Positions 3,224 through 56,989 of a DNA stretch of 64,000 nt are shown one piece after another. The position numbers were made by a program, and so were the translations under genes. The stretch comes from Azolla caroliniana (taxonomy: Eukaryota > Plantae > Polypodiophyta). Each line of letters opens with the position of its first letter. Positions within the stretch are counted from its first letter, which is position 1. The DNA lies in NCBI GenBank assembly GCA_043228905.1, contig JBHGNT010000009.1, forward strand, positions 15,872,001-15,936,000. Direction: 5' to 3'. The notes below the pieces were generated by a model. The model was not told where the DNA came from. It was given only the letters and a program-made list of their open reading frames with translations, and made no database searches.

Positions 3224-3443
3224 TAACAATTAGCAACGGTTTGGTTTGAACCAAACCGAACCACGAAATCACGGCTTAATGGTTTCAACGGTTCGGTTCG
3301 GTTCAGTTCAGTTCGACCCCTCATCGGTTTAACGGTTTAGGTTTAAAAGGTTTGAAACCCATGGTTTAAACGGCTTAACGGTTTGGGTGAAAGTTTTATA
3401 AATATTTTCTTTTAACACATTTTTTAAAGGTCAGTTGTATCAA
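3224..3443 (+). mobile_element. Orphan left end of a hAT-family DNA transposon
   Basis: TAACAATTAGCAACGGTTTGG... aligns with the hAT left end at 30050-30285 and has the same GGTTY/AACCG subterminal repeats. Truncated by a copia LTR. Confidence 0.8.
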
Positions 3444-4596: not shown

Positions 4597-6185
4597 TATT
4601 GGGAAATTGGTCCCTCCGGATGGGATCCGGTGAGAACTGGAAGAGACCCGGTGTCGTGAAGATTTTCGGCAACGATGTGAAAATGGAATGGAATGTACAA
4701 AATCGAGTGTGGTTCTTCACACACAACATAAAACAATAATAGTGAAGATACTATTTTATACTAGTTTAATATCTTGGTACAAAAAGATGGAGGTCTTCAA
4801 GAGCTTTCGAATACACTTTATTTACCACATAAGAAACGGACAACTAAGTGGCAAGTTATGTGGGTATGAAGTTTGCGAAGAAGAAGAGAAAAAACAAACT
4901 ACGAGATATCCCACATAGACAGGACAAATAAGGATATCAGAGTATATAAGCAGGGCCAAAATCTATTACTTTGTGTCTATGAGTGGATTATAGAATGTCC
5001 AAGGTGAATTGAGCAAAACTAATCGGATAAATGGGTGTGGCCTAACTACTTGTAAAGGTTTTGGCCGACCGGACGGAGTCGGCGAGACGGGGACCGGGGA
5101 CCGAATGGTGATGGACAGGATCGGATCAAGATCGGATTGAACCGGTCGGGACAGACGGATCGGTTGGTTGATTGGGGTGCATGGTGTTTTGAAGATTTTT
5201 GGTGTAAATACAAGACCAAAAGCCTATAATATTTTGTGTTTTTTTAAAAGGGATGTGAGCAAGGCTTGAACCTTGCACTTCCAAGATAGGAAGCAATATA
5301 CTTACCACTAAGCAAAGAAAATAGAAATTATAATTTTATCATTATACTTTTACATGTAAATTCTCATACATGAGAGCTTAGATGATGGCGTGGCAAGCAT
5401 GCATTGCATGCATTACGTGCATGTCTTGCACCCCATGCACCATATGCATGGGGGCATCTATAAAAGAGTGGAGGAATCAAGAAAATATGACTAATGAAAA
5501 TTTTGGGAAAAATAAGAAACTTGTAATCCTATTGTTGATGTATCTTCTCTCTTAAATCTAAAAGTTAAAAGTTCAATCTTTATCTCAATATCTCTCTTTC
5601 GTCATATCAGTCTCTCTCAATCTATTTCTAGCCCTAAGTTCATATAAGTATAAATATGACTTAGGGCAATCACTTAGTATAGTGTGCATAGTGTTGTTGT
5701 CATACTGTTGAAACTGTTGTATAGAGAGCAACAAAGAGAGAGTGTGTGAGATATAGAGCGATACTCTATTGTAACCGCCGGTTGGCAAATATATAGAGCT
5801 CGAGGTCGTTGCCTCTGAGGCTCTGAATGTACCTTTCTTATATAGTGATAGTTTGGAGTCTGTGGGCTCCCGTGGTTTTTCCCTATTAGGGTTTTCCACG
5901 TAAACATCCAGTGTATTTCCTTGTGTACTCTCCATTTCCCATTTCTGTGTTTCATTCTCATAGAAGTGATTCAAGACTCGATTGTGGCCGAGCAATATTC
6001 CGCGCTATTCTCTTCAACCTGGTATCACAGCAAACAACACAGGAAATGGAAGAATCGTTCGGCGATATGTTCAAGCTCACCGGCTCCAACTACTCAGTGT
6101 GGATGTCAAAGATGAGCGATATGTTGGAGGTTAAAGATCTTTGGTTGCCGGTTCAGTTCGGGGACAACAGACCGGATAAGATCGA
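4597..6185 (+). mobile_element. Ty1/copia (Tork/Tnt1-like) 5' LTR (~4597-6016), PBS and gag start; truncated by a gypsy insertion
   Basis: Start TATTGGGA..GGTCCCTCCGGATGGGA, the TATAAATATGACTTAGGGC box and the U5 region match the LTR at 61481-62160. PBS TGGTATCACAGC at 6020-6031. Gag MEESFGDMFKLTGSNYSVW. Confidence 0.88.
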
Positions 6186-7919
6186 TGTCAGAACCAAGGA
6201 TAAAAGATAGAGTGATGGAAGAAGGATATTAGAGAACACGAGAAGAATGGATGTATAAGATAGAGAAAGAAAGAGAATGGATACAAGGTATGTAATGAGA
6301 GCTAAAGACTGGTGTTGATTCGAATTGATTTGAGAATACATGTATGCCCTTATTAATAGGTTCCTATAGAATAGATTAGAGATTTCTAGAATGTTCTAGA
6401 ATGTTCTAGACCTAAAATGCTCTAGGACATTCTAGAACATTCTAGAATAATCTAGAGTTTTTACAATAATCAATGTAATATAAGAAGTAGCTTTTATTGT
6501 TTCATATAACAATAAGCTATCTTAATGGTTGAGGTTTTCAAGTATGGATTACAAGGTTCGAGGTTCAAGTCCGGGTGATGCCATAACGGTCATGTGTTCA
6601 TGGCACTATCCCTCCTTCAGCATTACAAACGTTATCGATGGGTTCCCAAGTGCGATCACTCGGAGGATAGCCAAGCCAATCAACTAGATAATAAAGTTTA
6701 TTGCGCACAATCTTAGAATCGAGAATAGCAGCTACCTCGTATTCGGGGCCGTCCACAAGTTGTACAGAAGGCGGTGGTGGCACGACACGATTAGGAATTA
6801 AAGAGGTGCGGCAAGGTTCCAAAAGAGAGCAATGAAAGACAGGGTGAAGCCGCATATGCACAGGAAGGTTAAGACGAAATGTTGCATCATTAATCTGCGC
6901 CGTGATGACAAAAGGACCTAAGCGTTGATAGTCAAGCTTAGCACACGGTCGGGTAGTCTTGATGTGACGACGAAGCAACCATACACCGCTACCAACCTTA
7001 AACAGAGACTTAAGACGATGTCGATTGGCATTGGTCTTATGGTGTGCTTGCGCTTTTTGAAGATGTGACGATAACTCGAACTGGATTTGTTGTAGTCGGT
7101 GGAGGTGATGCGCCACACTAGGGTTTCGTGACACCTCGGGAAGATCCAGTATACACCATCGAGGGTGGTTGCCGGTGTAGGCAAAGAAAGGTGTAACTTT
7201 GGTAAAAGAGTGGACCGTGTTGTTGTATGTAAACTCGGCAAGATGTAAAATATTACTCCAATCATCTTGTTGATAACTAATGAAACATCGAAGATATTTC
7301 TCGAGTGTTTGATTTGTGCGCTCTGTTTGTCGGTCAGTTTGTGGATGATATGCCGAAGAGAGTTTGCAAGAGATTTTGAGGCCTGCCCATAGGTGCTTCC
7401 AAAAGTGTGAGATAAATTGAGGACCTCGATCGCTAATAATATCCTTCGGGAGACCATGATGGCGAAACACTTCACGCATAATGAGATCTGTAGTTTCTTC
7501 ACTATTGATGGTCTTTAGACATGGTACAAAATGTGCCATCTTGGTGAACCGATCCACTACTGTTAAAATAGTATCAAAGCCTTTGGAAGGTGGCAGATCC
7601 GTAATGAAATCCATAGAAATAGACTGCCATGGCTTGTTGGGAGGGGGTAATGGTTGTAGTAAGCCATAAGTGTGATGCCGGGGTACTTTGGCGCGACAAC
7701 AGGTGTCACAAGTGCGAACATAATCTTCGACAAATTTTTGCAAGTGAGGCCACCAAAACGAACGTTTCACCAGCTCAATGGTCTTCGAAATACCAAAATG
7801 TCCAACCATGGGGGCATCATGACAATGTTCCAACACTTGAAGTCGGGGTGATCCGTTGGGGACGTAAAGGAGATTCTTGTAGAAGAGTAAGCCATCTTGC
7901 CACTTGAAGTCCTGATAAT
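6186..7919 (-). mobile_element. Ty3/gypsy chromovirus copy A: 3' LTR (6186-6605), chromodomain and integrase
   Basis: TGTCA...TGGCA LTR homologous to 34867-35310. Integrase H..GH, C..C, SISMDFIT, SDRGPQF, ERTNQTLE. Chromodomain EYEVAAILDS...YLVDWLGY...TWEP. Confidence 0.95.
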
Positions 7920-10579: not shown

Positions 10580-10640
10580 TTGCCCATATATTTCTTTTTA
10601 ATTTCGAACATTTTACTTTTATACTCTTGTCATTCATATT

Positions 10641-11566: not shown

Positions 11567-14500
11567 TGTTAGAACCAAGGATAAAGGATAGAGTGATGGA
11601 AGAAGGATATTAGAGAACACGAGAAGAAAGGAACGAAATACTAACAGAAGAATGGATGTATAAGATAGAGAAAGAAAGAGAATGGATACAAGATATGTAA
11701 TGAGAGCTAAACACTGGTGTTGATTCGAATTGATTTGAGAATACATGTATGCCCTTATTTATAGGTTCCTATAGAATAGATTAGAGATTTCTAGAATGTT
11801 CTATAATGTTCTAGACCTAGAATGCTCTAGGACATTCTAGAACATTCTAGAATAATCTAGACGTTTTACAATAATCAATGTAATACAAGAAGTAGCTTTT
11901 ATTGTTTCATATAACAATAAGCTATCTTAATGGTTGAGGTTTTCAAGTTTGGATTACAAGGTTCGAGGTTCAAGTCCGGGTGACGCCATAATGGTCATGT
12001 GTTCATGTCACTATCCCTCCTTCGAGAACGCCGAGTGGAAGTCAGCGTTAACATTGTTGGGCCGGGCTTGTTTGGATAGTGACGATGGAAGTCATTGACC
12101 AGAGCTTCAGCATTACAAACGTTATCGATGGGTTCCCAAGTGCGATCACTCGGAGGATAGCCAAGCCAATCAACTAGATAATAAAGCTTATTGTGCACAA
12201 TCTTAGAATCGAGAATAGCAGCTACCTCGTATTCGGGGCCGTCCACAAGTTGTACAGAAGGCGGTGGTGGCACGACATGATTAGGAGTTAAAGAGGTGCG
12301 GCAAGGTTCCAAAAGAGAGCTATGAAAGACAGGGTGAAGCCGCATATGCGCAGGAAGGTTAAGACGAAATGTTGCATCATTAATCTGCGCCATGATGACA
12401 AAAAGACCTAAGCGTTGATAGTCAAGCTTAGCACATGATCGGGTAGTCTTGATGTGACGACGAAGCAACCATACACCGTCACCAACCTTAAACGGAGACT
12501 TAAGACGATGTCGATCGGCATTGGTCTTATGGTGTGCTTGCGCTTTCTGAAGATGTGACGATAACTCGAACTGGATTTGTTGTAGTCGGTGGAGGTGATG
12601 CGCCACACTAGGGTTTCGTGACACCTCGGGAAGATCCAGTATACACCATCGAGGGTGGTTGCCCGTATAGGCAAAGAAAGGTGTAACTTTGGTAGAAGAG
12701 TGGACCGTGTTGTTGTATGCAAACTCGGCAAGATGTAAAATATTACTCCAATCATCTTGTTGATAACTAATGAAACATCGAAGATATTGCTCGAGCGTTT
12801 GATTTGTGCGCTCTGTTTGTCCGTCAGTTTGTGGATGATAAGCCGAAGAGAGTTTGCAAGAGATTTTGAGGCCTGCCCATAGGTGCTTCCAAAAGTGTGA
12901 GATAAATTGAGGACCTTGATCGCTAATAATATCATTCGGGAGACCATGATGGCGAAACACTTCACGCATAATGAGATCTGCAGTTTCTTCATTATTGATG
13001 GTCTTTACACATGGTACAAAATGTGCCATCTTGGTGAACCGATCCACTACTGTTAAAATAATATCAAAGCCTTTGGAAGGTGGCAGATCCGTAATGAAAT
13101 CCATAGAAATAGACTGCCATGGCTTGTTGGGAGGGGGTAATGGTTGTAGTAAGCCATAAGGGTGATGCCGAGGTATTTTGGCGCGACAGCAAGTGTCACA
13201 AGTGCGAACATAATCTTCGACAAATTTTTGCAAGTGAGGCCACAAAAACGAACGTTTCACTAGCTCAATGGTCTTGGAAATACCAAAATGTCCAGCCATG
13301 GGGGCATCATGACAATGTTCCAACACTTGAAGTCGGGGTGATCCGTTGGGGACGTAAAGGAGATTCTTGTAGAAGAGTAAGCCATCTTGCTACTTGAAGT
13401 CCTAATAATGTTGAGATGACCCTGGCAATGTGGAGCAAGATGGACGACTTGAACCACAGTGGGCTAAGACATCCTTAGCGAAATCATCCGAATGAAGTTG
13501 TTGCCGAATAGTGTCAAGAAGGGTAGAATCAAGTGGCGTGGCATAAATTGTTGTTACCTGTAGCTTTGATGGCCCGAGGAGAATTTGCTTTTGATTGTCA
13601 AAGGCCGGATCTCCAGGTCGAAGTGCTAGATACGAATGCCGAGACAAAACATCTCCTTTCCCTTGTTGTTTTCCGGGGCGAAAAATGATCTTGAAATCGA
13701 AACGCGTTAGAAATTGGGCCCACCGAGCTTGTCGTCTATTTAATACTCGAGTTGTTTGAAAATATGTGAGATTTTTGTGATCACTATAAATGATAATCTG
13801 ATGAGGTGATCCTTCTAGAAAATGACGCCATTGCTCGAATGAGTCGACCACAGTTAGTAACTCCTTGTCATGCACCTCATAGTTTATCTCCGAAACAATA
13901 AATTTTCTCAAGTGAAACGCGACTGGATGTGTCTTCCCGTCCTCGCTTGGTTGCAATAGGATACTCCCCAATGCAAAGTCTGATGCATCCACCTCAATAG
14001 TAAATGGCTTTTCAGGATCAATATGTGCTAGGATGGGTGCTGATGTGAATGCCTCTTTCAGCTGCGTAAAAGCCTTGTCCGCTTCGATGCTCGAAAAAAA
14101 TGCTTGATTTTTCTTGGTGAGTTGAGTAAGGGGCAACACAATGCTTGAAAAATTATGTATGAATTTGCGATAGAAGTTCGCAAATCCGAGGAAACATTGG
14201 ACATCTCGAACTGAGCATGCGGGTTTCCATTCCAATATTGTTTGGACTTTTGCCGGGTCCATGAAAACACCCTGGGATGAAATAGTGTATCCCAAAAATT
14301 CGAATTGTTTGCAATCAAAACTACATTTCTCAAGTTTGGCATAAAGACCATACTTCCTTAGGCGTTCAAGTACTTGCCGCACATGTATATCATGCTCCCC
14401 CTGTGTTTTAGAGTAAATCAATAGATCATCTAGGTAGATGATTAGAAAAATATCCAAGAAATCCCGGAAGATGTCATTTGCCATATGTTGGAATACTGTA

Positions 14501-26546: not shown

Positions 26547-29388
26547 TGTCGAGACTCGTGGGTAGAAGATAGAGTGAGAGCGAGAGCGAAAGAGAGAGGG
26601 TGTGTGTGTGTGCGTGAGAGAGAAAGAGAGAGTGAGAGCAAGAAGACTTGAAATAGAAATGAGATTATATTATGATGAAACAAGATTACAATGAGTAGGC
26701 TAAGGGCTAAAGACTGGTGTTGAACCGAATGAGTTGAAACGAATGTATAGATAGTTATTTATAGGTCCTTATGGAGTAATCTAGAATGTTCTAGAATATT
26801 TTAGATTTTATGATAAGAAATATAATCATGAAATATTAAAGGATGTTCTAGAATAATCTAGAATATTTTAGAATATTCTAATATCTTGTGATAACTAGAA
26901 ACATAATTATTATAATCACACAACATATATGTTATTACAATGGTTAAGGGTTCAACACATAGACCAAGAAGTCATGGGTTCGATTCTTGATAACCAAAAT
27001 GTTGTCTTCATGACATTATTCTCCCCTTTCGATGACGAGTTCCACGAGTCGGAAGACAAGAGTTCGGACTTGGTTTATGGGGATATTTGTCGTGAAATGC
27101 AAAAACCATGTCAGAGGCATTAGCAAGATGCTTGGTAGGCTCCCATGTTCGATCATTAGGTGTATAACCTAACCAATCAACCAAATAATATAGTTTGTTG
27201 CGGATGATCTTGGAGTCGAGAATAGCAGCAACCTCATATTCAAAGCCATGGGAAACTTTGATTGGAGGTGGGGGAGGTGTAAGACGGCCCGGAATAGAGC
27301 TTGTTGTGTAGGGCTCCAAAAGTGAAATATGGAAAAACCGGTGAAGACACATATGAGGAGGGAGATCAGGACGAAATGTCACATCATTGATCTTACCAGA
27401 GATCACATATGGGCCGAAACGTTGATAATCCAATTTGTAGCAAGGTCGAGTGGTTTTAATGGTACCTTGTAAGAGCCATACACGATCTCCTACTTGAAAC
27501 GTAGTCGATGAATCACGCCGATGACGATCAACAATCTTCTTTTGAGTGTTTTGGGCATCACATAAATGATGCAAAAGTATATCTTGAATTTCTTGGAGTC
27601 GAGTGAGCCGATCTTCAGCAGTTGGGTTTTTCAGGAGTTCGGGATGTTCAAGCATCGTCCAACGAGGATGGTACCCAATGTTAGCAAAAAATGGGGAATA
27701 ACCAGTAGAAGAATGTTCGAAGTTGTTGTAAGCAAATTCCGCCAAATGTAATAAATCCACCCAATCATCTTGTTGATAGTTGACAAAACAATGTAGATAT
27801 TGTTCGACTGTTTGGTTGGTGCGCTCACTTTGCCCATTAGTCTCTGGATGGTAGCCGGAAGAGAGTTTACAAGAAGTATGTAAGAGTTTGAACATGTGCT
27901 GCCAAAATTTCGAGATGAATTGGGGACCCCGATCACTGATAATATCATCTAGAAGACCATGATGGCGAAACACCTCCCGCATGAGTAAATCGGTTGTCTC
28001 TTGACTAGTAATGGTCTTCGTGCATGGAAGGAAATGCGCCATCTTCGTAAAATGATCGACTACCGTGAGAATAGAATCAAATCCCTTGGAAGGTGGAAGA
28101 TCCGTAATAAAGTCCAAGGATATAGATTTCCATGGGCTCTCCGGAATAGGCATTGGCTGTAATAGGCCATATGGATGATGTCGAGGCTTTTTTGATCGGC
28201 AACATGTATCACAACTACGAACATAATCCATAACAAAATGGCGAAGCCGTGGCCACCAATATCGGCGAGAAATCAACTCAAAAGTCTTGTGGATGCCGAA
28301 ATGTCCAGCCATTGGCGTGTCATGACATTGTTGCATGACTTTGAGCCGAGAAGGACCGTCAGGCACATACAAGAGAGTTTGTCGAAAAAGCAAACCATCA
28401 TGCCAATTGAACTCGGTGTAGTCTAGACGAGGATTTTTAGATTGAGAGCTGGAAGCACGATCTGGGATAATATGACTCAAAACCTCTTGGGCGAATGCAT
28501 CTGTCACAATCTGCTCCCAAATGGAATCAAGAAGCCTCGAATCTCCTGGTGTGTTGATAGTATGTATTGCCATTACTCGTAGACGATCAGGACCTAAGAG
28601 GATTTGCTTTTGACTTTCAAATGCGGCCTCTCCTGGTTGAAGTTCCATATACGAACGTCGAGATAAAGCATCTGCTTTTCCTTGTTGCATCCCAGGGCGA
28701 TATAGAATTACAAAATCAAAACGAGTTAAGAATTGCGCCCAACGAGCTTGTCGACGATTCAAAACTCGAGCACTTTGGAAGTATGTTAGATTTTTGTGAT
28801 CATTGAAGACAATAATCTGTTGAGAAGAACCCTCCAAAAAATGTCGCCATTGTTGAAAAGAATCCACAATGGCAAGAAGCTCTTTGTCGTGAATCTCATA
28901 GTTGATTTCTACGGCTTCAAATTTCCGTGAGTGAAAAGCCACAGGGTGCAGTTCGCCATCTTCACCAATCTGGGATAGTATGCTTCCAAGTGCGAAATCA
29001 GATGCATCAGCTTCAAGTATAAAGCGCCTCATTGGATCGACATGCATTAAAATTGGTGCAGATGTAAACGCTTGAAACCGAATGAGTTGAAACGAATGTA
29101 TAGACAGTTATTTATCGGTTCTTATGGAGTAATCTAGAATGTTCTAGAATATTTTAGATTTTATGATAAGAAATATAATCATGAAATATTAAAGGATGTT
29201 CTAGAATAATCTAGGATGTTCTAGAATAATCTAGAATGTTCTAGAATATTCTAATATCTTGTAATAACTAGAAACATAATTATTATAATCACATAACATA
29301 TATGTTATTACAATGGTTAAGGGTTTAACACATAGACCAAGAAGTCGTGGGTTCGATTCTTGATAACCAAAATGTTGTCTTAATGACA
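26547..29388 (-). mobile_element. Ty3/gypsy chromovirus copy C (second family), internally deleted
   Basis: 3' LTR 26547-27015, PPT GAAAGGGGAGAATAA, open RH-INT-chromodomain frame 27008-29047, partial 5' LTR ~29075-29388. Flanks ATATT and ATATC inside an (ATATCT)n tract. Confidence 0.93.
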
Positions 29389-33879: not shown

Positions 33880-35294
33880 TTGCCCATATATTTCTTTTTA
33901 ATTTCGAACATTTTACTTTTATACTCTTGTCATTCATATTTGTAAAGAATCGGGTATGATTCTTGTGTAGCGGAAGAGATATGTGTTATGTGTATGTGTG
34001 AGAGGAAATAGAGAAGAGAAGAGAAGACACAAGATGGATAGATAGAATTGAAATAGAATAATCAAGAAGAAGAAGAACATGTATATTCACAAGGAGAATA
34101 TGAAATACAAAAATGTAGCATTACAAGGAGTCACAACCGACTTAATATGAAGTATGGGGAGGGTGCTTTATATATAGTAACCCTCTCTCTTCATTAACTA
34201 ACTACAACAAACACTCTCTCTTGGGGAATGTGAAGACTCATTGTCATGGGGAATATGTAACTCATTAGTTATATGTCATAGAATATGATTCTATGACACA
34301 TAGTTAATGTGTAGAGAGTAGTGGTGTCACTCTTGACCTTTGAGTAATCATAGATTCTCAAAAAGTGTGTTCACACGTTGAACTATGTTGAGCTTGATTC
34401 TCAACACACACCCTCAAGCTCAACTCGGCTCGGTTCCTTTCTATTGATGTTCGCTTCGGCTTGTATCCGGTTCGGACGATCTCTGGTGTCCGCTTCGGCT
34501 CGTACCCGGTTTGGATGGTATCTGGTTCTTGCTTGTACTCCTCCTCAAGCTTGGCAAGTCAATGATCGCTAATCCAAGGTCTAACATGAATTGCCAAAGC
34601 TTGTCAGCACCTAGGGTCTTGGTGAAGATGTCAATTGTCTGAAAATTCGTGTTGATGTGTAGAAGATCGACATCTCCGGCTTGAGCACGCTCTCGAATGA
34701 AGTGGTAGTGCACTTCGATATGCTTTGTTCGTTCATGGAACACTGGGTTTTGGGCCAGATATATACTACTCATGTTGTCGCAGTAAATGGGAGTCAGATC
34801 CTTGATGGGAACGCCCAGATCCTTCAAAATCTTCGTGAGGCATACGGCTTCACACGCAGCTACGGTTGTTAGAACCAAGGATAAAGGATAGAGTGATGGA
34901 AGAAGGATATTAGAGAACACGAGAAGAAAGGAACGAAATACTAACAGAAGAATGGATGTATAAGATAGAGAAAGAAAGAGAATGGATACAAGATATGTAA
35001 TGAGAGCTAAACACTGGTGTTGATTCGAATTGATTTGAGAATACATGTATGCCCTTATTTATAGGTTCCTATAGAATAGATTAGAGATTTCTAGAATGTT
35101 CTATAATGTTCTAGACCTAGAATGCTCTAGGACATTCTAGAACATTCTAGAATAATCTAGACGTTTTACAATAATCAATGTAATACAAGAAGTAGCTTTT
35201 ATTGTTTCATATAACAATAAGCTATCTTAATGGTTGAGGTTTTCAAGTTTGGATTACAAGGTTCGAGGTTCAAGTCCGGGTGACGCCATAATGG

Positions 35295-38204
35295 TCATGT
35301 GTTCATGTCACTATCCCTCCTTCGAGAACGCCGAGTGGAAGTCAGCGTTAACATTGTTGGGCCGGGCTTGTTTGGATAGTGACGATGGAAGTCATTGACC
35401 AGAGCTTCAGCATTACAAACGTTATCGATGGGTTCCCAAGTGCGATCACTCGGAGGATAGCCAAGCCAATCAACTAGATAATAAAGCTTATTGTGCACAA
35501 TCTTAGAATCGAGAATAGCAGCTACCTCGTATTCGGGGCCGTCCACAAGTTGTACAGAAGGCGGTGGTGGCACGACACGATTAGGAGTTAAAGAGGTGCG
35601 GCAAGGTTCCAAAAGAGAGCTATGAAAGACAGGGTGAAGCCGCATATGCGCAGGAAGGTTAAGACGAAATGTTGCATCATTAATCTGCGCCATGATGACA
35701 AAAAGACCTAAGCGTTGATAGTCAAGCTTAGCACATGATCGGGTAGTCTTGATGTGACGACGAAGCAACCATACACCGTCACCAACCTTAAACGGAGACT
35801 TAAGACGATGTCGATCGGCATTGGTCTTATGGTGTGCTTGCGCTTTCTGAAGATGTGACGATAACTCGAACTGGATTTGTTGTAGTCGGTGGAGGTGATG
35901 CGCCACACTAGGGTTTCGTGACACCTCGGGAAGATCCAGTATACACCATCGAGGGTGGTTGCCCGTATAGGCAAAGAAAGGTGTAACTTTGGTAGAAGAG
36001 TGGACCGTGTTGTTGTATGCAAACTCGGCAAGATGTAAAATATTACTCCAATCATCTTGTTGATAACTAATGAAACATCGAAGATATTGCTCGAGCGTTT
36101 GATTTGTGCGCTCTGTTTGTCCGTCAGTTTGTGGATGATAAGCCGAAGAGAGTTTGCAAGAGATTTTGAGGCCTGCCCATAGGTGCTTCCAAAAGTGTGA
36201 GATAAATTGAGGACCTTGATCGCTAATAATATCATTCGGGAGACCATGATGGCGAAACACTTCACGCATAATGAGATCTGCAGTTTCTTCATTATTGATG
36301 GTCTTTACACATGGTACAAAATGTGCCATCTTGGTGAACCGATCCACTACTCTTAAAATAGTATCAAAGCCTTTGGAAGGTGGAAAATCTGTAATGAAAT
36401 CCATAGAAATAGACTGCCATGGCTTGTTGGGAGGGGGTAATGGTTGTAGTAAGCCATAAGGGTGATGCCGAGGTATTTTGGCGCGACAGCAAGTGTCACA
36501 AGTGCGAACATAATCTTCGACAAATTTTTGCAAGTGAGGCCACAAAAACGAACGTTTCACTAGCTCAATGGTCTTGGAAATACCAAAATGTCCAGCCATG
36601 GGGGCATCATGACAATGTTCCAACACTTGAAGTCGGGGTGATCCGTTGGGGACGTAAAGGAGATTCTTGTAGAAGAGTAAGCCATCTTGCCACTTGAAGT
36701 CCTGATAATGTTGAGATGACCCTGGCAATGTGGAGCAAGATGGACGACTTGAACCACAGTGGGCTAAGACATCCTTAGCGAAATCATCCGAATGAAGTTG
36801 TTGCCGAATAGTGTCAAGAAGGGTAGAATCAAGTGGCGTGGCATAAATTGTTGTTACCTGTAGCTTTGATGGCCCGAGGAGAATTTGCTTTTGATTGTCA
36901 AAGGCCGGATCTCCAGGTCGAAGTGCTAGATACGAATGCCGAGACAAAACATCTCCTTTCCCTTGTTGTTTTCCGGGGCGAAAAATGATCTTGAAATCGA
37001 AACGCGTTAGAAATTGGGCCCACCGAGCTTGTCGTCTATTTAATACTCGAGTTGTTTGAAAATATGTGAAATTTTTGTGATCACTATAAATGATAATCTG
37101 ATGAGGTGATCCTTCTAGAAAATGACGCCATTGCTCGAATGAGTCGACCACAGTTAGTAACTCCTTGTCATGCACCTCATAGTTTATCTCCGAAACAATA
37201 AATTTTCTCAAGTGAAACGCGACTGGATGTGTCTTCCCGTCCTCGCTTGGTTGCAATAGGATACTCCCCAATGCAAAGTCTGATGCATCCACCTCAATAG
37301 TAAATGGCTTTTCAGGATCAATATGTGCTAGGATGGGTGCTGATGTGAATGCCTCTTTCAGCTGCGTAAAAGCCTTGTCCGCTTCGATGCTCGAAAAAAA
37401 TGCTTGATTTTTCTTGGTGAGTTGAGTAAGGGGCAACACAATGCTTGAAAAATTATGTATGAATTTGCGATAGAAGTTCGCAAATCCGAGGAAACATTGG
37501 ACATCTCGAACTGAGCATGGGGGTTTCCATTCCAATTTTGTTTGGACTTTTGCCGGGTCCATGAAAACACCCTGGGATGAAATAGTGTATCCCAAAAATT
37601 CGAATTGTTTGCAATCAAAACTACATTTCTCAAGTTTGGCATAAAGACCATACTTCCTTAGGTGTTCAAGTACTTGCCGCACATGTATATCATGCTCCCC
37701 CTGTGTTTTAGAGTAAATCAATAGATCATCTAGGTAGATGATTAGAAAAATATCCAAGAAATCCCGGAAGATGTCATTTGCCATATGTTGGAATACTGCA
37801 AGTGTATTTGTGAACCCGAAAGGCATGACTGTATACTCGAAATGACCATACCGAGTACGAAATGATGTTTTCCACTCATCTCGCGGCCCAATTTGAACAA
37901 GATTATATGCACCCCTTAGATCAATTTTGGTAAAATGCTTTGCCCCACCAATGCGTTCTAAGAGATTGGAGATTAAAGGTAAACCATACATATTCCTTAT
38001 GGTGACTTTATTTAAGCCTTGATAGTCCACGACCAAACGAAGGGAGCCGTCCTTTTTCTTCACAAAAAAGATAGGAGCACCAGTTGGAGACTTTGAATGT
38101 CGAATAAACCCATGTGCAAGATTTTCCTCGATGTATTCTCGAAGAACCTCAAGCTCAATGGGTGATAAATTGTAAATCGGACCCCACGGTGGCTCTTTTC
38201 CTGG
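35295..38204 (-). CDS. pol: Pol region of gypsy B: RT-RNase H-integrase-chromodomain, uninterrupted frame
   Basis: 922-aa ORF with KIDLRGAY, YLDD, EVDASD, the D-D-E integrase core, GPY/F-like QRLGLF and a canonical chromodomain. Ends inside the 3' LTR. The upstream protease part carries stops and a deletion. Confidence 0.92.
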   Translation of the reverse strand, partial: PGKEPPWGPIYNLSPIELEVLREYIEENLAHGFIRHSKSPTGAPIFFVKKKDGSLRLVVDYQGLNKVTIRNMYGLPLISNLLERIGGAKHFTKIDLRGAYNLVQIGPRDEWKTSFRTRYGHFEYTVMPFGFTNTLAVFQHMANDIFRDFLDIFLIIYLDDLLIYSKTQGEHDIHVRQVLEHLRKYGLYAKLEKCSFDCKQFEFLGYTISSQGVFMDPAKVQTKLEWKPPCSVRDVQCFLGFANFYRKFIHNFSSIVLPLTQLTKKNQAFFSSIEADKAFTQLKEAFTSAPILAHIDPEKPFTIEVDASDFALGSILLQPSEDGKTHPVAFHLRKFIVSEINYEVHDKELLTVVDSFEQWRHFLEGSPHQIIIYSDHKNFTYFQTTRVLNRRQARWAQFLTRFDFKIIFRPGKQQGKGDVLSRHSYLALRPGDPAFDNQKQILLGPSKLQVTTIYATPLDSTLLDTIRQQLHSDDFAKDVLAHCGSSRPSCSTLPGSSQHYQDFKWQDGLLFYKNLLYVPNGSPRLQVLEHCHDAPMAGHFGISKTIELVKRSFLWPHLQKFVEDYVRTCDTCCRAKIPRHHPYGLLQPLPPPNKPWQSISMDFITDFPPSKGFDTILRVVDRFTKMAHFVPCVKTINNEETADLIMREVFRHHGLPNDIISDQGPQFISHFWKHLWAGLKISCKLSSAYHPQTDGQTERTNQTLEQYLRCFISYQQDDWSNILHLAEFAYNNTVHSSTKVTPFFAYTGNHPRWCILDLPEVSRNPSVAHHLHRLQQIQFELSSHLQKAQAHHKTNADRHRLKSPFKVGDGVWLLRRHIKTTRSCAKLDYQRLGLFVIMAQINDATFRLNLPAHMRLHPVFHSSLLEPCRTSLTPNRVVPPPPSVQLVDGPEYEVAAILDSKIVHNKLYYLVDWLGYPPSDRTWEPIDNVCNAEALVNDFHRHYPNKPGPTMLTLTSTRRSRRRDSDMNT

Positions 38205-38932
38205 TTAGAGATCAATAGGACAGTCGTACGGCCGATGCTTTGGAAGAACAGTAGCTTTGACTTTGTCGAAAACATCAGCATAGTCTTGATATTTTTTGGG
38301 AATTTGGATGTCGGAATTCCCTTGAGTGACACTAGAAGGTGTCACTGATACTGCAAATAAGAAAAGGTCCTCCTTGCCTCCCACTTGGCGCAATTGTTGC
38401 AATGTGATGGCTGAAATTTGATGAGAAAGATATGGTGCATCGGTAGAACTATACACTTTAGGAGGATAATCCCGAGTTCGATCCTTGAAAATGATATTTT
38501 CTACTAAAGGGCACCTAATTTCTCGCTTCCTCCAATCGATTCTAGGGTTATGTAGCTCGAACCATGGCAAACCAAGGACAATTGGATGCTCAGGACTACG
38601 GATTATGTTAAAGGAAACTACACATCCTAAATCACCCAAGAGTATGTGTATTGGCTCAGACTCTTCAAATATCTTCCCGGAAGCTATGGGGCGTCCATCA
38701 ATCACTACTACGGAAACTGGACAAGGAAGTGTATGCAAGGATATTTGATGTTTTTGGGCAAAATCTCTATCCATGAAACAAGAATTGGCTTGGACTTGAA
38801 GTTGACAACTGGGTGTCCTAACTTGTACTAGGGCTGAGAAGACTCTACTAACATGCTTGGAATAAATGGAACCCACACTAGGTTGTACTTATCTAGGGTT
38901 ATCCAACCAAATGGCTCCTATTTTGTACGGAC

Positions 38933-40096
38933 TTATTCGTTTGACTCCTCTAATAATTGACTTAGGACTTCAAATTTATTGGACAAGGGTGGATTATTCA
39001 TAATATTAGATTCACTAACTGTCTCTAAAATGTTGGACTCATTTTTATTGTCATAGTGAATTTGATTTACCTGACGTCTCGGCCTACAGGAGCAATGAAT
39101 GGCTATATGTCCTGGACCTCCGCAATATAAGCACAGATGGTTTGCTCGACGACGTTGCTTCTCTTCGTCTGACAACGGTCCTCGTCGTTGAGTCATATCG
39201 ATCTCCATGGGTGCATGACTATCCATTGGGACTGGACTACGTGTTTGCCTTGGAGTTGGAGCAGGGCTATACATTTGCCTTGGGGATGATTGCGTCGTTG
39301 CTGATGCATAAGTTGGTGTGAATCTTGATCTTATTATTTTTTGTTGTCGCTCACATCGACACTCAAAAAGGCGATTATCACACCGTATTGCTTGACTAAT
39401 AGCTTATGTAAGTGACCTTGGATCCTCGGGGAAGGTAAGAAGTAAGTCTTTGACATCATTACGAAGGCCTGAACGGAATTGCTCCATTAGGGCTTGTTCA
39501 TCCCAACGAATATCGCTTGCAATGAGACGGAAATTGGCAGCATATGTCGAAGCTGGTTGATCACCTTGACGAAGTGTATGAATCTTGTTGATAGTTGTTC
39601 TTGCCCCATTAGTATCTCCGAAACAAGCCTTAAATTCCTTGATAAATTCCTCGAAATTATTCAATAGAGGAGAATTGGTCTCTAGCAATGGAGCAAACCA
39701 CGACAACACTACGCCAGTCAATAAGGTGCCCACTAGCCCGACTCGTGATGCATCTGTTGGATAACGCGCGGGATGCATTTGAATCACCAACCGTACTTGA
39801 TTCAAGAAACCTCGGAAATGCGCCCTCGACCCATCAAATTTAGCTGGGAGGCTAATTTTGGGCTCCTTGATAAGTCCATGACCTTCAACCTTTTGTTGTT
39901 GTAACACTACGATTGTCGACGCTAACTGTTGCACTTGTCGTGTGAACTCCTCTTGTTGTTGTTGCTTCTCTATAGTAACCTTTTGTTGATCCCCAAGTAG
40001 ACGTTGATTCTCTACTTCAAGAGATGCGAACTTGGATTTAAGGTTCTCCATTTCGGCAACAAGGGTGAGATATTCTTCTGAGTTAATGGCAACCAT
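38933..40096 (-). pseudogene. gag: Gag of gypsy B (one premature stop at 39404)
   Basis: Coiled coil, PAKFDG, LRQG...YAANF, FRSGL, APMEID and CLYCGGPGHIAIHC motifs. Confidence 0.92.
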
Positions 40097-40121
40097 GGTT
40101 TCAGGATGGTTGCAAAGGAGG

Positions 40122-40152
<31 letters not shown>

Positions 40153-40157
<5 letters not shown>

Positions 40158-40164
40158 GAATCAA
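40153..40164 (-). promoter_or_regulatory. Self-priming primer-binding site of gypsy B
   Basis: TTGATTCGAATT lies 2 nt inside the 5' LTR edge. It is the exact complement of AATTCGAATCAA (40331-40320), which starts 32 nt downstream of TATAAATA (40363-40356). No TGG tRNA-type PBS is present. Confidence 0.8.
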
Positions 40165-40388
40165 ACTGTCAGAACCAAGGATAAAAGATAGAGTGATGGA
40201 AGAAGGATATTAGAGAACACGAGAAGAAAGGAACGAAATACTAAGAGAAGAATGGATGTATAAGATAGAGAAAGAAAGAGAATGGATACAACATATGTAA
40301 TGAGAGCTAAATACTAGTGTTGATTCGAATTGATTTGAGAATACATGTATGCCCTTATTTATAGGTTCCTATAGAATAACTTAGAGAT

Positions 40389-40460
40389 TTCTAGAATGTT
40401 CTAGAATGTTCTAGACCTAGAATGCTCTAGGACATTCTAAAACATTCTAGAATAATCTAG
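40389..40460. promoter_or_regulatory. Heat-shock-element array upstream of the LTR TATA box
   Basis: TTCtaGAAtgTTCtaGAAtgTTCtaGA matches alternating nGAAn/nTTCn. Also present at ~6384-6455, 11789-11860, 35089-35160, 26780-26880 and 29133-29253. Confidence 0.7.
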
Positions 40461-40522
40461 AGGTTTTACAATAATCAATGTAATACAAGAAGTAGCTTTT
40501 ATTATTTCATATAACAATAAGC

Positions 40523-40577
40523 TATCTTAATGGCTAAGGTTTTCAAGTATGGATTACAAGGTTCGAGGTTCAAGTCC
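40523..40577 (+). promoter_or_regulatory. tRNA-like Pol III A-box/B-box cassette in LTR U3, antisense to the element
   Basis: A box TATCTTAATGG (40523-40533) and B box GGTTCAAGTCC (40567-40577), 33 nt apart as in tRNA genes. Present in every chromovirus LTR in the window. Confidence 0.65.
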
Positions 40578-43500
40578 GGGTCACACCATAATGGTCATGT
40601 GTTCATGACAACGGTTGTGCCAATGTATTTGGCCTCCATACTCGAAAATGCGACGGTAGGTTGCTTTTTACTACTCAAGATATTGATCCGCTGTCAAGCG
40701 AGAAGACAAATCTGGATGTTGATCGTCGATCAGCTCTGTAGCCGGCCCATTCGGCATCTGTGTACCCTTCGAGTCGAATTGGTATGGCCGACACGTAAAG
40801 GATGTCATAATCCATTGTGTTGCTCACATATCATAATACTCGCTTAGTGCAATCGAAATGGATATCTCGCGGAGTTTGCACGAATTGGCTAAGGATGCCG
40901 ACCAGATAGTTGAGGTCGGAACACGTGATCGTGAGATAGATGAGGCTCCCAATCAGTTGTTGATATTGAGTCAGCTCGCACTCATCTATGCCGGAGTCGG
41001 CATCTAGTTTGAGGTTTCGATCAAGAGAGGTTGACACAGATTTGCACTCTGTCATCCCGAACTTGTATAATAAGTTGAGAATATAGTGTCGTTGAGAGAT
41101 CATAATGTCGGTCGGAATCCGAATTACTTCGATGCCTAGGAAGTAATGAAGTTCCTTCATGTCCGTCATCTTCAATTTGTTGGAGAGGAGGGATTTCACC
41201 TTGTTGATGTCGACCAAACTTTCTCCTCCAATGACCAGATCATCCACGTATAGGACGATGACAATCGAGCTTCTAGAGTCGTTTTGTACATAGAGGGAGT
41301 TGTCGGATTTCAACATTCGAAAGCCGATTTGATGAACATATTGCGTAATCTTCGAATGTCAGGCACGCGGTGCTTGCTTGAGGCCGTAGAGAGGTTTCTT
41401 GAGTTAGCATACAGCATTCGGATGAATGTTGGATTCAAAGCCGGGTGGTTGTACCATGTACACCTCTTCTAATTCACCTTGAAGAAAGGTGTTCTTGACG
41501 TCCATTTGGTGGAGGTGCCACCCTTTCGCCGTTGCGAGTGCGATCACGGTCCGCACAGTCGTCTTCTTTGCCACCGGGGAAAATGTCTCTTCGTAGTCAA
41601 CTCCATGCGTATGTGTGTATCCTTTTGCTACGATCGAGCTTTGTCACGGTTTACGAAGCCGTCGGCGTTATACTTCACCTTGTAGATCCATCTGCAACCG
41701 ATCACCTTCTTGTGCGGCAAGTGGGGGAGAAGATCCCATGTCTTGTTTTTGGAGAGTGCTTGCATCTCCTCATTCATCGCTTCAACCCATTTGGGGTCCT
41801 TCCCGGCTTCGGAAAACATTTCCAGCTCCCGTACTGTCGCTACATTCATCATAAAGGTGTAATGGTACGCCATATAATCGTTGTAGCCGAATCGGCTTAT
41901 GGGGTTCTTTTCACGAGTGGATCGGCGGAGCTTCTTGTTTGCGGATACTAAGGCTTTCTTCGCTCCATTTTTCTGGATGTCAAGGCCTTCGAACTCACTA
42001 TCAAGGGAGTGAGTCGATTTGTTGTCGTCGAAGTGATCGTCTTCATACTCAGGCATTTTCGCCTTCCGTTTGTCCAGCTTCAGACTTGGCCGAGATGTGC
42101 TTTCATCGCTCGGAGGCTCTTGTGGACCACTAAGCCTTGTCCTAATCGGGATTTCTTCGAACATGCACGTGAACCGATCTTCGGTTTCTATCTCTATTTC
42201 GGCGGATTCCAGACCGAGCAAAATCGGTCCAGTCGAAGTTGTCTCTGGTGCATACCAAGATGTGGACTCGTCGAAAACGACGTCTCGACTTACTCGCGAT
42301 TTCTGAGTGGAGGGGTTATAGCACTTGTACCCCTTTTGCTCCAGTGAGTATCCTACGAGGATACATTTCTCCGACTTCAAGTCGAGCTTCTGTCGCTTCT
42401 CGTCAGGGATGTGCACGTATGCAATTGAGCCGAATATCCGAACATGTGATAGGTCCCCAGCTTCTTTCCAAAAATCGTCTCGTGCGGAGTAAGTTCGTGC
42501 ACACCTCATGTCGTACACCGATTCATGAGGTATACAGCCGTGTTAGCCGCTTCTGCCCAGTACTACTTCGGTATGTGCTTTTCGTTCATCATGGTTTGTG
42601 CTACTTCGAGGATGTGCCGATTCTTTCGTTCGGCGACTCCGTTTTGTTGTGGCGTATGTCAACACAAAAACTCTCACTGAATTCCTTCTTTCTGTATAAA
42701 AGCCAAAAATTCGTCGGAGAAGTACTCCTTGCCTCCATCCGACCGAAGACATCATACATATCGGCCCGTTGTTTTCTCGACTTCATTCTTAAATTTTTGG
42801 AAGTGTTCGAACACTTCGCTCTTTTGTTGCATGGGGTACATCCAGGTGTGGCTGGAGAAGTCATCGATGAAGGCCACGTAGTATCTGCATCCGCCGAATG
42901 TAGCCGTCTGAGCCGAACCCCATACATTAGAATGAATTATGTCGAGTACTCCTTTGCTCACGCTCCACTCCTTTGGAAATGGGTGCCGATGTTGCTTGCC
43001 GAATTGGCAAGCAGCACACACGCCTTCAATCTCATTCTCCTTTAATGTAAGGAGCCCGATGACTACTCCTTTCTATTGCATTGCCTTGAGCTTTTGGAGG
43101 TTGATATGGTCATTGCCTTGAGATTTTGGAGGTTGATATAGTCAATCCGCTTGTGCCATAACTCTATGTCAGAATCGGCTTTCATGCCCTTTGCGAACAT
43201 GGCCAATTTGATCTCGTGCTAGTCGAGAATAAACATTCGGCCCTCTCTTCGTCCGCGAGCGATGAGTCGGCCCTCTTCTTTGATGAAGCAACCGCCTTGA
43301 TTAAATCGTACTTGCATCCCTTGCTCAACAATTTGGCTGACGGAGACCAAATTCTTCGTAATGGTTTGTACATGCAAGACATTCTTAATAAAAGTTTGGT
43401 TACCTTCTTTGTCGAATGGGACATTGCTGATGTGTTCAATCGGATGTGTAGTGTCGTCTCCGGTTTCGACATAGTCGGGTCGTTCTAGCTCTCGAAGTTC

Positions 43501-43651: not shown

Positions 43652-46615
43652 AACACGTTCACGTTCACAAGTGGAAGGATAAGGAATATTCCGTTTAATT
43701 TTGGGGTTTTTTTTGCCATTTCACAAAACATCTTGATACTAGTATCACATGTTCTCCAAAACTTGATGAAAAAGTTAAAAATTTCACCATTTGGTAAAAT
43801 TGAAAATTGCAAAATTTGGGTCAAATACGAAAAGTAACTTTGTGGATTTTTAAAGAAAAATGACAACTAATAAGTTTTTAGATCTTAAAGAAATCGAAAG
43901 TAGAAGATTTCAAAACAATGAATGTTTTTTTCCATTCGATAAAATGTTGTCTAAATTTGTTACATATAGTTGCACAACAAATACATTTGGGAGTTATTTG
44001 CATGACTATCATCATTCTTTTCCTGAGAATCACTACTATAGATAATTTACAATTGTGACTCTTTCTCCTCATCTTCCAATGTACCAATCAAATCATTGTC
44101 TTCACCAAATGGTATCTCCAAATTGTGTGCAATAAATCTTCTTCGCCTTCAATCTGAGATATCTTCTCGACTTGCTAATATCTCTTTTATTATGTATATC
44201 ATTGTTTTCCTTAAACATCTAACTTTTGTCTGTGTAAAGTCATACATAATGATATCCACCTCATTAATGTCAATGATAGATGTATTACAAAGGTTTAATG
44301 CATCATCACATCCAAAACTTTACCAATGTAGAATTGGTACCCTAGGTCATGGCCATCTACATGTGTAACTATTAATATCCCCACCTTGACTTTTGGCAAG
44401 TTTCCTTGTCACCTGAGTTATGCTTGTGTTATCATCCTTCATTCCAACTATAAAGATCAACATTAAGTAGTGATTGAGAACCACGCTAACACTTTACAGA
44501 CAGTGTAAATGGCATTTGCAAGGTTCAATTACCATCAACACAATTATTAATAGTTTTTTGTTAATCAATGATGCACATGTTCACCATAAAGTATCTTATT
44601 GTACAACATACTTGTTTGCACTATCGATATGCATCTTTTTCTCTTGTAAAAACAAAGATTTTAGTACGATTCAAGTTCACGTTTAAAAAACCTCTTTTAT
44701 TTGAAAAACAACAAGATTTTAAACATTAACTCGATATGTTGTATCGAGCTGATGTAAAAAATAGAGTTTTCATCATAATTCCATACAATGTATTGAATTC
44801 TTGCTCAAAGTTTTTCTTACCTAATTTAAATAATAATAATAATAATAAATTAAGCTTGAGATGATAGAAAAACAAGATTTCTCATCACAATTCAATACAA
44901 TGTATCAAGTTCATGTTTAAAGTAATTTTTTCTAATTTTTTTCAATTTTTCTTCAATTTTTTTCAGTTTTTTATTGTTATTTTTCAAAAAAAAAAAATTA
45001 TTTTTTATGGAAAAAATAATAATTTTAAACATGAATTCGATACATTGTATCAACTTGTGATAAAAACTCTGGTTTTTTCATCACTTATTAAAGCGCAATT
45101 TTTTAAAAAAATACCAAAATAAAATAGAAAAAAATGTTTTTTTTTTTTTTAATCCAAAATAAAACTTTAAACATGAACTCGATATGCCGTATCCTTTTTG
45201 ACATGAACTTGATACGGCATATCGAGTTCATGTTTAAAACTCCGTTTTTTCATTCGTGTCGAAAAGCTGACTTTTCGACACGAACTCGATACAATTTATC
45301 GAGTTCATGTTGAAAATGTTTCGACATGAACTCGATACATTGTATCGAGTTGTTCGTGTTGAAAACTCAAATTTTCAACATGAACTCGATATAATGTATC
45401 GAGTTCATGTTTAAACTTTTTTATCGGGTTTTTGAAAAAATTAATTGCATTTTTTATTTTTATTTTTGGTTTTTTGTGTTTTGTTTTGGAATTTTTTTTT
45501 GTGCTTCAATAAGTGATGAAAAAACCAGACTTTTTACCACAAGTCGATACAATGTATCGAATTCATGTTTAAAATTATTATTTTTTCCATAAAAAATCAA
45601 AAAAAATCAAAAAAATTGAAAAAAAATTGAAAAAAATTAGAAAAAATTACTTTAAACATGAACTCAATACATTGTATCGAATTGTGATGAAAAATCTGGT
45701 TTTTATATCATCTCAAGCTTCTTTTTTTTTTTCTTTTTTTTTAAATCCAGTAAAAAAAACTTTGAAAATGAATTCAATATATTGTATGGAATTATGATGA
45801 AACTCTATTTTTTACATCAACTCAATACAATATATCGTGTTCATGTTTAAACCTCTTGTTGTTTTTCAAATAAAAGAGGTTTTTTAAAGATGTATGTTGC
45901 ACAACAAGATACCTTATGGTAAACATGTGCTTCATTTATTAGAAAAAAACCATTAATAATTATATTGATGGTAATTGAACTTCTCAAATGCCGTTTACTT
46001 CACAAATTTTGTAGGGGAATTCTTTTAAGGAAGAAGAGGATAACATTGTAGATACCCTGATAACTATGTGTTATGTTCAAATTGATATATTAATGTTCAC
46101 ATCTAAAGTTTGACAGTTTATGAATATCGTCTACATTTTAGGAGTTGTGGATTTATCAAAATTGTTTATGAATATTGTCTACATTTCTTGACTTGTGAAT
46201 TTATGGATGTTAATGAGCACTAATTTATAGATGATGACATTAAGGATTGCAATGTTACCTTTTATACTTAAAACATTTTCAAGTCTAACAATATATGTAA
46301 TCTTAATCTCCTCAAGATGGTGAAACCATTAATCTTAACTTGTGCCTTGAGTTGACCATTGTGATTTTCTTTAAGTTAACTACATTTCATATCTACAAAC
46401 CATCAACATTTAAACATTTATTGAAAAACTATTCAATTTTAGAAATTATCATTTTGAAACTTGTTAAATCTCAAAAATTTAGCAAATTTTACATACTATT
46501 TCAAACATGTGATACTGGTGTATCAAGTTTTTGGAAATTGTCTAAAATCGCAATATTATAAAAGGAATCTATAAGTGGAATGCGCAATCCTTCCACTTGT
46601 GAACGCAAAGGTGTT
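43652..46615. mobile_element. Non-autonomous foldback-type TIR DNA element
   Basis: 29-bp TIRs (26/29) AACACGTTCACGTTCACAAGTGGAAGGAT. ATAG flanks both ends, and removing the element restores the copia reading SDYNNRGGMF. Large internal inverted repeat at ~44505-45998. Confidence 0.88.
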
Positions 46616-54231: not shown

Positions 54232-54240
54232 GTGCTGTGC

Positions 54241-54275
<35 letters not shown>

Positions 54276-56535: not shown

Positions 56536-56989
56536 ATATGATATGAACATACTTTATATTAAGAATACAAGATTTTACCAACTTTATAATGCTCAATTGC
56601 AAGATAAAATTTTCCTCTACCAAATTTCAGCTTGAACCCTGGACTTAAGTGTTGAGAGACAATAAACTTCCTAGATGAGCTAGCTTGTTTGTTTGATTAT
56701 TTGATTTTCTAACTTCCCCTCTTTTTATAGGTGCCCCCATGCATATGATGCATGTGAGGGTACAAGACATGCATGAAATTCATGTAACGCATGCGATGCA
56801 TGATAGCCATCTTGCTCATTTGAGCTCTCATATCTGAAAATAGACATTTGATAAGTATAATGATGAAAACATAATTTTGAAAAATAACTTAGCTTAATGG
56901 TATGTACTTTGTACTTGGTTTATAAGGTTGTTGGTTCAAGTCTCTCAAATGTCACTTAATATAATACTTGAGTTTATTTTTATATTGTG

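Follow-up and report, generated by a model that had tools for sequence, protein, structure and literature searches.

Why would a protein-coding LTR retrotransposon keep a tRNA-like RNA polymerase III (Pol III) promoter in its LTR, pointing away from its own transcript? Pol III promoters in LTRs have previously been described for short non-autonomous elements, in which they drive the RNA of the element, and a backward promoter in a protein-coding element cannot do this; the cassette described here, which is antisense and yet retained in protein-coding elements, apparently under selection, therefore suggests that retrotransposons put the Pol III machinery to a different use. The cassette at 40523-40577 lies in a chromovirus LTR of Azolla caroliniana, within the window (the whole 64-kb stretch of DNA that was analysed). 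The first-pass annotation had placed such cassettes at six positions, and a pattern scan of the window recovered every coordinate. The form TATCTTAATGG-N33-GGTTCAAGTCC matched at 6518-6572, 11923-11977, 35223-35277, and 40523-40577 (four matches against 0.00 expected), and the family C form TATTACAATGG-N33-GGTTCGATTCT, followed by one T and then GATAACCA, at 26933-26987 and 29306-29360. The parts of the cassette at 40523 and the further copies in the window are as follows.

40523..40533, + strand: A box (tRNA positions 8-19), antisense to the element
40559..40563, + strand: variable-loop block (tRNA positions 44-48), reading AGGTT in this copy but AGGTC in the majority of families; nothing else outside the B box is conserved as well
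40567..40577, + strand: B box (tRNA positions 52-62), its end 33 nt inside the outer end of the LTR
40471..40515, + strand: AT-rich tract (80% A+T) upstream of the tRNA-like unit, a putative TFIIIB placement site
35223..35277, + strand: cassette in the 3' LTR of the element at 34867..40610
11923..11977, + strand: cassette in the segmental duplicate of the 35.2k LTR
6518..6572, + strand: cassette in the 3' LTR (6186-6605) of another family A element
26933..26987, + strand: cassette in a family C 3' LTR (26547-27015)
29306..29360, + strand: cassette in a family C 5' LTR (29076-29388, where a deletion joins the LTR to pol)
56890..56943, + strand: cassette in a non-Tcn1 LTR-like repeat (~55292-57008, - strand), antisense
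5262..5315, - strand: cassette in a U3-like module of the + strand (~5184-5628), antisense

The six cassettes in Tcn1-like LTRs lie on the + strand and their carrier elements read on the - strand. A looser search, accepting an A box and a B box at a separation of 28-40 nt, gave eight matches in the window against 0-1 per shuffle (12 shuffles), namely these six and the copies at 56890-56943 (+) and 5262-5315 (-). The claim that the orientation is always antisense held in 8/8 window copies and in 14/14 LTRs of the metagenome series described below (best 80 of 593 stretches). The 33-nt spacer corresponds to that of a tRNA whose variable loop has five bases, and a CCA end was rejected as a tRNA feature, CCA not being found at tRNA positions 74-76 of the sequence read. 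The distance from the start of the A box to the TATA box, first given as about 160-170 nt, was 158-160 nt in family A and 168 nt in family C, but it is not fixed across families (113-204 nt). The family A/B copies are related to one another: those at 11.9k and 35.2k lie inside a 98% segmental duplication, a single element has the 35.2k and 40.5k copies in its two LTRs, and the 6.5k copy is 90-92% identical to them. The window contains two Tcn1 families, not four independent A/B cases. The cassette is not restricted to two chromovirus families, being present also in non-Tcn1 LTR-like DNA and in many relatives.

Several other features were observed in the window. The segmental duplication itself (7989-15897 versus 31289-39234, 98% identical, 23.3 kb apart) contains nested copia and chromovirus pieces. 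A host gene without a Pfam match is located at 53605-54297 (-) and has 16 homologues, all four that name an organism being from ferns, which by itself would make a fern the likely host. Nested long inverted repeats at 44500-46000, with sub-threshold Rfam miRNA matches, are likely a foldback DNA transposon, and a common GGTTT/AAACC-rich repeat (3224-3453 versus 30050-30288, 72%) is likely a DNA transposon end. A sense B-box-like string, GGTTCAAC, occurs without an A box at 26723-26760 and in the R regions of L003-L012, within the self-primer region of clade I; it is missing from clade II and is probably due to chance.

The carrier of the 40.5k cassette is a full-length chromovirus with the following parts.

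34867..40610, - strand: full-length Tcn1-like chromovirus of family A, 5,744 bp (Pfam domains, target-site duplication, LTRs)
40167..40610, - strand: 5' LTR, 444 bp, TG...CA, 426/444 identical to the 3' LTR (34867-35310)
40385..40455, - strand: array of TTCTAGAA-type repeats between the cassette and the TATA box
40356..40363, - strand: Pol II TATA box of the LTR, TATAAATA
40319..40331, - strand: predicted self-primer near the transcript start, complementary to the primer-binding site (PBS)
40153..40166, - strand: self-priming PBS, GTTTGATTCGAATT, not of the tRNA type
35311..35323, - strand: polypurine tract (PPT) preceding the 3' LTR

Pfam domains of gag, protease, RT, RNase H, integrase, and a chromodomain were found in this element, with interrupted reading frames, and it is flanked by a 5-bp target duplication, ACCGT. 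The PPT is retained in the chromovirus elements of the window. The PBS is complementary to the R region of the element itself, not to a tRNA, and PBS and self-primer co-vary across relatives (including L007, L010, L012, L024, and L039), from which the Tcn1-like elements are predicted to self-prime. The integrase chromodomain matched Pfam Chromo with an E value of 2.7e-13, and in its translation we took Y, W, and Y to be the aromatic cage. The Tcn1 clade is recognised by self-priming together with a chromodomain that has an aromatic cage (PMC6317226), and the carrier is Tcn1-like in both respects. The shared features with the Tcn1 chromoviruses described in the available text of Neumann et al. 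2019 (PMC6317226) and Novikova et al. 2010 (PMC2864245) comprise the self-priming PBS, the aromatic-cage chromodomain, a non-seed plant host, TG...CA LTRs, and the 5-bp target duplication. Plant Tcn1 elements were placed there in mosses and lycophytes, whereas the host here is a fern, a group in which the 2010 PCR survey, according to the same text, did not find Tcn1 (PMC2864245). The term 'polymerase III' is absent from the main texts of both papers (PMC6317226, PMC2864245).

Read from the outer end of the LTR, the U3 consists of 33 nt, the B box, the variable-loop block, the spacer, the A box, the A+T tract, the TTCTAGAA-type array, the TATA box, and the self-primer. The array matches heat-shock elements. 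Across families, the enhancer-like block between cassette and TATA box contained arrays of this type in A, C, L001, L003, and L010, motifs of the RY/ABRE type in L005, L007, L009, L012, and the 57k repeat, and both in L022. This swapping of the block suggests heat-responsive and desiccation- or ABA-responsive subfamilies. The cassette is always located outward of the enhancer-like block and the TATA box, though the block itself changes. Moreover, the 45 nt upstream of the cassette had 78-87% A+T in 11/14 families and were richer in A+T than the rest of the U3 in 11/14, similar to the DNA upstream of the tRNA genes in the metagenome contigs L002 and L017 (84% and 73% A+T). Sequence of the family A LTR was also present in runs from five coded organisms and in metagenomes from plants, leaves, and sediment.

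Relatives were collected by a metagenome scan for pol homology, in which the best 80 of 593 confirmed stretches yielded 79 loci, and IMG/VR added seven. The readable set comprised 41 loci in which a scripted 3' LTR start left 130 readable bases, plus L010, read through its 5' LTR; the metagenome contigs may be collapsed repeats. With a scoring matrix trained on clade I families, the scored family being left out, all 14 LTRs of the ERZ-prefix assembly series scored 10-26 bits antisense and at most 6.5 sense (best 80 of 593 stretches). The other 28 relatives scored at most 7.9, and the cassette was present in 0/28 (best 80 of 593 stretches plus IMG/VR); the LTR starts of these 28 loci were script-picked, that of L015 being misplaced but, by eye, also without a B box. 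The IMG/VR relatives were distant only, and the cassette was found in none of them. Some of the cassette-free relatives have two intact LTRs, and these 28 relatives show that the cassette is dispensable for the lineage.

The carriers fall in two pol clades (quick IQ-TREE, SH-aLRT only, 28 chosen rows; best 80 of 593 stretches): clade I contains ten rows, together with families A and C, and clade II contains four rows at ~57% pol identity and is sister to three non-carriers with support 100. FastTree with 73/89 rows gave the same tree shape. The pol tree would need two changes, and two gains fit it equally as well as one gain plus one loss. Both carrier clades occur in one assembly series, which also contains an 84-91% relative of family A, so cassette presence may follow the host lineage. 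Two further observations were made in these contigs: L014, L015, and L016, a Tcn1-like group, have an extra conserved reading frame between chromodomain and PPT, and L002:37-1649 and L017:2350-3001 hold tandem tRNA-Tyr-like (intron-bearing) and tRNA-Pro genes or pseudogenes beside truncated Tcn1 fragments.

In addition to the Tcn1-like LTRs, two LTR-like modules in the window carry the cassette. The 57k repeat starts with TGTCATGAA, interrupts a copia gag, ends before a TGG-type PBS-like site, and is without the Tcn1 self-primer. The 5.3k module is 73% like the U3 of the 57k LTR over 205 nt, and their cassettes differ at 13/18 sites of the anticodon arm and at 1/11 sites of the B box. The 5.3k module precedes a copia LTR, with its own TATA box, and a PBS; a reading of its cassette as a feature of that copia LTR was rejected, as in each run 47-101 contigs have other sequence upstream of 5629, and none among the contigs listed bridged this position; many copia copies lack the module. 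At 55494-56535, within the 57k repeat, an inverted piece of a gypsy integrase and three tandem units of 92-108 nt are enclosed by 149-bp direct repeats.

For the conservation analysis, 16 families were aligned with the B box as the sole anchor, the two non-Tcn1 rows having been found through their boxes. G46 was kept in 16/16 rows and A44 and T47 in 15/16, and the GG of the A box also stood out. The clade II families L024, L028, and L039 had no A box at 32-33 nt, only the B core, and were left out of the 13-row alignment, in which mean pairwise identity was 0.65 in the A box, 0.83 in AGGTC, and 0.74 in the B box, compared with 0.34 in the spacer and 0.33-0.40 in the flanks, for which composition predicts 0.27-0.36. 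Between lineages, the values were 0.61, 0.78, and 0.73 for A box, AGGTC, and B box versus 0.31 in the spacer and 0.34-0.38 in the flanks. Since the B box served as anchor and the non-Tcn1 rows were chosen by their boxes, clade I is the clean test. In its ten families, picked by pol homology, an A box was present at 32-33 nt in 10/10 (best 80 of 593 stretches), and T8, G18, G19, A44, G46, T47, G53, T54, T55, and A58 were invariant, with C56 being T in 2/10 rows. Five disjoint clade I pairs differed at 18/80 sites in A box plus AGGTC versus 89/239 in spacer plus flanks (Fisher p = 0.02). Overall, 13/16 families, namely the ten of clade I, L022, and the two non-Tcn1 copies, have the A box and the B box at tRNA spacing with the invariant bases, which is the arrangement of a type 2 Pol III promoter.

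The expectation of the first-pass annotation that the boxes are kept more than their surroundings was thus borne out, and selection on a tRNA-type promoter is well supported by these alignments. A tRNA origin was likewise upheld by the invariant tRNA positions, the exact 32-33 nt spacing, and the variable loop. Nor does the cassette behave like an ordinary polymorphic SINE insertion: it is present in 6/6 Tcn1 LTRs of the window, and cover over it was continuous in three DNA runs, with only minor skips among those listed. Of 74 within-family differences in Logan contigs, the 40 listed included none located in the A box, in AGGTT, or in the B box, and one run, whose RNA type was guessed, gave three contigs, none over the cassette; neither observation is counted as evidence. 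The original A/B-box model captured the conserved boxes but not the variable-loop AGGTC, which is better conserved than the A box and which A and B boxes alone do not explain.

The fold of a tRNA is not among the kept features. The stem cells of the cloverleaf were paired in 49.8% versus 49.2% in shuffled rows, ARAGORN found 0 tRNAs in the window, no Rfam tRNA matched any cassette (Rfam tRNAs were found only in the true array of L002), and RNAalifold predicted no pair of a common structure; a tRNA gene or cloverleaf was rejected on these four results, and the cloverleaf is decayed, as had been proposed. Strong folding of the tRNA-like strand was nevertheless seen in L003, L010, and the 5.3k copy (z -3.5 to -4.4), and in 4/16 rows additional pairing comes from the spacer (<=5/300 shuffles as stable), whereas most rows fold no better than shuffles. 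In L003:5053-5134, L010:506-587, and L009:4896-4977, the 5' half of the spacer was observed to be an inverted copy of the B-box region of the same family, giving a long hairpin. A shared terminator is missing as well: in 15 families the first T4 lies inside the LTR in five, shortly beyond it in three, and more than 400 nt away in four, and it was not found within the <=600 nt read in three, and families A and C have no T-run terminator inside the LTR. Taken together, conserved boxes, an AT-rich upstream tract, a lost fold, and no shared terminator suggest that the site matters as DNA.

We therefore propose, at slightly less than an even chance, that a type 2 Pol III promoter of tRNA origin serves in these LTRs as a DNA site for TFIIIC and TFIIIB, which would shield the adjacent Pol II enhancer and TATA box. 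In this proposal, the A box, the variable-loop block, the B box, and the AT-rich upstream tract would dock TFIIIC and TFIIIB, and the docked complex, positioned at the LTR's outer edge, would maintain the neighbouring Pol II promoter region in an open state and block silencing or read-in transcription from the flank. An element that is nested in other repeats would profit from such a barrier, the cassette of the 5' LTR lying between the flank and the enhancer-TATA block. Binding of these factors at the cassette is probable, and a barrier or nucleosome-organising role as the selected function is plausible at not quite an even chance. The precedent comes from yeasts, in which tDNAs and TFIIIC sites act as barriers: they attract TFIIIC and TFIIIB, nucleosomes become positioned around them, silencing and the spread of heterochromatin are halted, and Pol II read-through is prevented (PMC7990762, PMC4228148). 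A search of the plant TFIIIC barrier literature gave no paper on the topic by title. Several findings count against a barrier: Pol II transcribing the element would run into the cassette of the 3' LTR and be obstructed by any complex bound there; the A boxes of clade II are decayed, and three invariant bases, A44, G46, and T47, are not part of the stated box motifs; and the distance from A box to TATA box ranges over 113-204 nt, with 28 relatives being free of the cassette.

Alternatively, Pol III could actively transcribe from the cassette, and the antisense RNA or its synthesis would regulate the element, reading from the 3' LTR into the PPT and the chromodomain end of pol and from the 5' LTR into the flank. 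The clade I promoter anatomy is complete, with exact tRNA spacing and an AT-rich upstream tract, strong folds occur in L003, L010, and the 5.3k copy along with the spacer pairing in 4/16 rows, and a MIR in Polr3e is reported to be an antisense Pol III unit that interferes with Pol II (PMC5358760). The missing shared terminator, with T4 inside the LTR in 5/15 families, weakens this alternative, which had also been raised in the first-pass annotation, and a common structure is likewise missing, most rows folding like shuffles, so that we regard it as unlikely.

A function in the RNA of the element was also weighed, in which the complement of the tRNA D loop, variable loop, and T loop, immediately following the PPT, would base-pair with tRNAs of the host at the stage of packaging, dimerisation, or strand transfer. 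The Ty3 bipartite primer site and the HIV-1 U3 motif are precedents for tRNA pairing, and a function of this kind would explain the strict antisense orientation, the adjacency to the PPT, the exact tRNA spacing, and the invariant A44, G46, and T47. It is rather improbable, since Tcn1 families, with co-varying PBS and self-primer, are predicted to self-prime and would need no tRNA primer; positions 49-51, within the stretch that would be paired, vary freely (identity of 0.22 across lineages); C-to-T changes make up most departures (C48 3/10, C56 2/10, C62 6/10) and would place A opposite C; and the HIV-1 U3 motif went without mention in a review.

The tRNA-derived motif might now be read by another DNA-binding factor, with AGGTC-nnn-RGTTCRA as its site, and act as an ordinary enhancer element. 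This core is kept in 14/14 series LTRs (best 80 of 593 stretches), including three clade II families without a placed A box, and the conservation of AGGTC exceeds that of the A box. Against such a factor, A box and spacing persist in 10/10 clade I families, L022, and both non-Tcn1 copies, and AGGTC also stands 5' of the B box in the supplement entry of Helenus-1_SMo (PMC10886601) and in the tRNA-like genes of L002 and L017, indicating that AGGTC comes with Pol III units, and we consider another factor very unlikely. A WRKY W-box reading of the AGGTC complement was rejected, the TGAC core being missing in families A, L001, and L022.

It is more remote still that the cassette acts in integration, either by tethering cDNA ends to Pol III sites or by attracting elements that target tRNA genes to the LTR. 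Only 5-65 nt separate the B box from the end of the cDNA, Tcn1 fragments lie near the tandem tRNA-like arrays of L002 and L017, and the two LTRs of L039 diverge just upstream of the cassette; set against this, insertion upstream of the A box was seen in 0/8 window copies, the full-length family A element is inserted in a copia pol, not at a tRNA gene, and the L002 junction is a truncated gag without LTR or target duplication. An integrase attachment site was rejected, the B box being 5-65 nt from the LTR end. Finally, a functionless passenger, left over from a SINE or a tRNA, replicated together with the LTR and dispersed among families by LTR recombination, has only a slight chance and is largely refuted by the contrast between boxes and spacer, for although U3 modules do move between families, as the 5.3k and 57k copies (73% over 205 nt) illustrate, a passenger would decay evenly, whereas the boxes persist with spacer and flanks near background even between those two copies, and the CG of the B box is kept in 6/10 clade I rows, CG sites in methylated plant repeats being expected to mutate fast.

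The proposed TFIIIC/TFIIIB site can be set beside several known systems. The available text on the Helenus TRIMs (TRIMp3; Kojima 2024, PMC10886601) likewise describes tRNA-derived LTR sequence with conserved boxes A and B. Helenus elements are short and non-autonomous (311-1263 bp, no coding capacity), in contrast to the 5,744-bp element with gag-pol domains described here; their cassette is sense in three supplement entries and proposed as their own promoter, whereas it is antisense at the outer U3 edge here; and they have a tRNA-complementary PBS, whereas the PBS here matches the element's own R region and a Pol II TATA box is present (PMC10886601). The same text notes that 'not a few LTRs' in Repbase contain tRNA-like sequence, non-TRIM cases being undescribed there, and expects autonomous partners not to share such LTR sequence (PMC10886601); because of these Repbase LTRs, earlier undescribed cases are likely. 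No description of an antisense A/B-box cassette in autonomous plant LTRs was found in the literature searched, subscription papers and Repbase entries being outside its scope. The Cassandra and Ajax TRIMs, as described in the same source (PMC10886601), also have a small-RNA-gene Pol III promoter fixed in the LTR with its motifs best kept, but theirs is a 5S-derived type 1 promoter in non-autonomous elements that drives their own RNA (demonstrated for Cassandra, according to that paper).

The tDNA barriers and ETC sites of yeasts, with TFIIIC/TFIIIB recruitment through A and B boxes, are the likely model for the cassette, and ETC9 is described as a tRNA pseudogene that binds the factors without Pol III (PMC7990762, PMC4228148). 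Those barriers are fixed host loci with binding and mutant data (PMC7990762, PMC4228148), as opposed to the mobile plant elements described here. Tracing its origin, we infer that the cassette was captured from a tRNA gene or the head of a SINE. The tRNA-derived SINE heads found in LTRs are similar in having A and B boxes at tRNA spacing and a lost cloverleaf, which makes them a likely origin; unlike a SINE insertion, the cassette comes without body, tail, or target duplication (5-65 nt from B box to LTR end) and is fixed in all copies seen, and no free SINE copy was found in the 64-kb window or in 118 kb of series contigs.

On the present comparisons, the cassette is a real, conserved variant of the Pol III promoters in LTRs. 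It is conceivable, if on balance doubtful, that in this fern lineage autonomous LTR retrotransposons of separate descent have independently acquired, or exchanged among themselves, a portable TFIIIC insulator of tRNA origin at the outer U3 edge, which would let every new insertion hold its Pol II promoter open in silenced chromatin; an anti-silencing boundary of this kind was not found described for plant retrotransposons in the literature searched. Such LTRs can inflate annotations of Pol III promoters or SINEs, and self-priming Tcn1-like elements are added to a fern host. If the barrier reading is true, the cassette would offer a direct test of TFIIIC insulators in plants and a compact candidate insulator for transgenes, and it would show how a chromodomain element that is likely to land in heterochromatin stays expressible.
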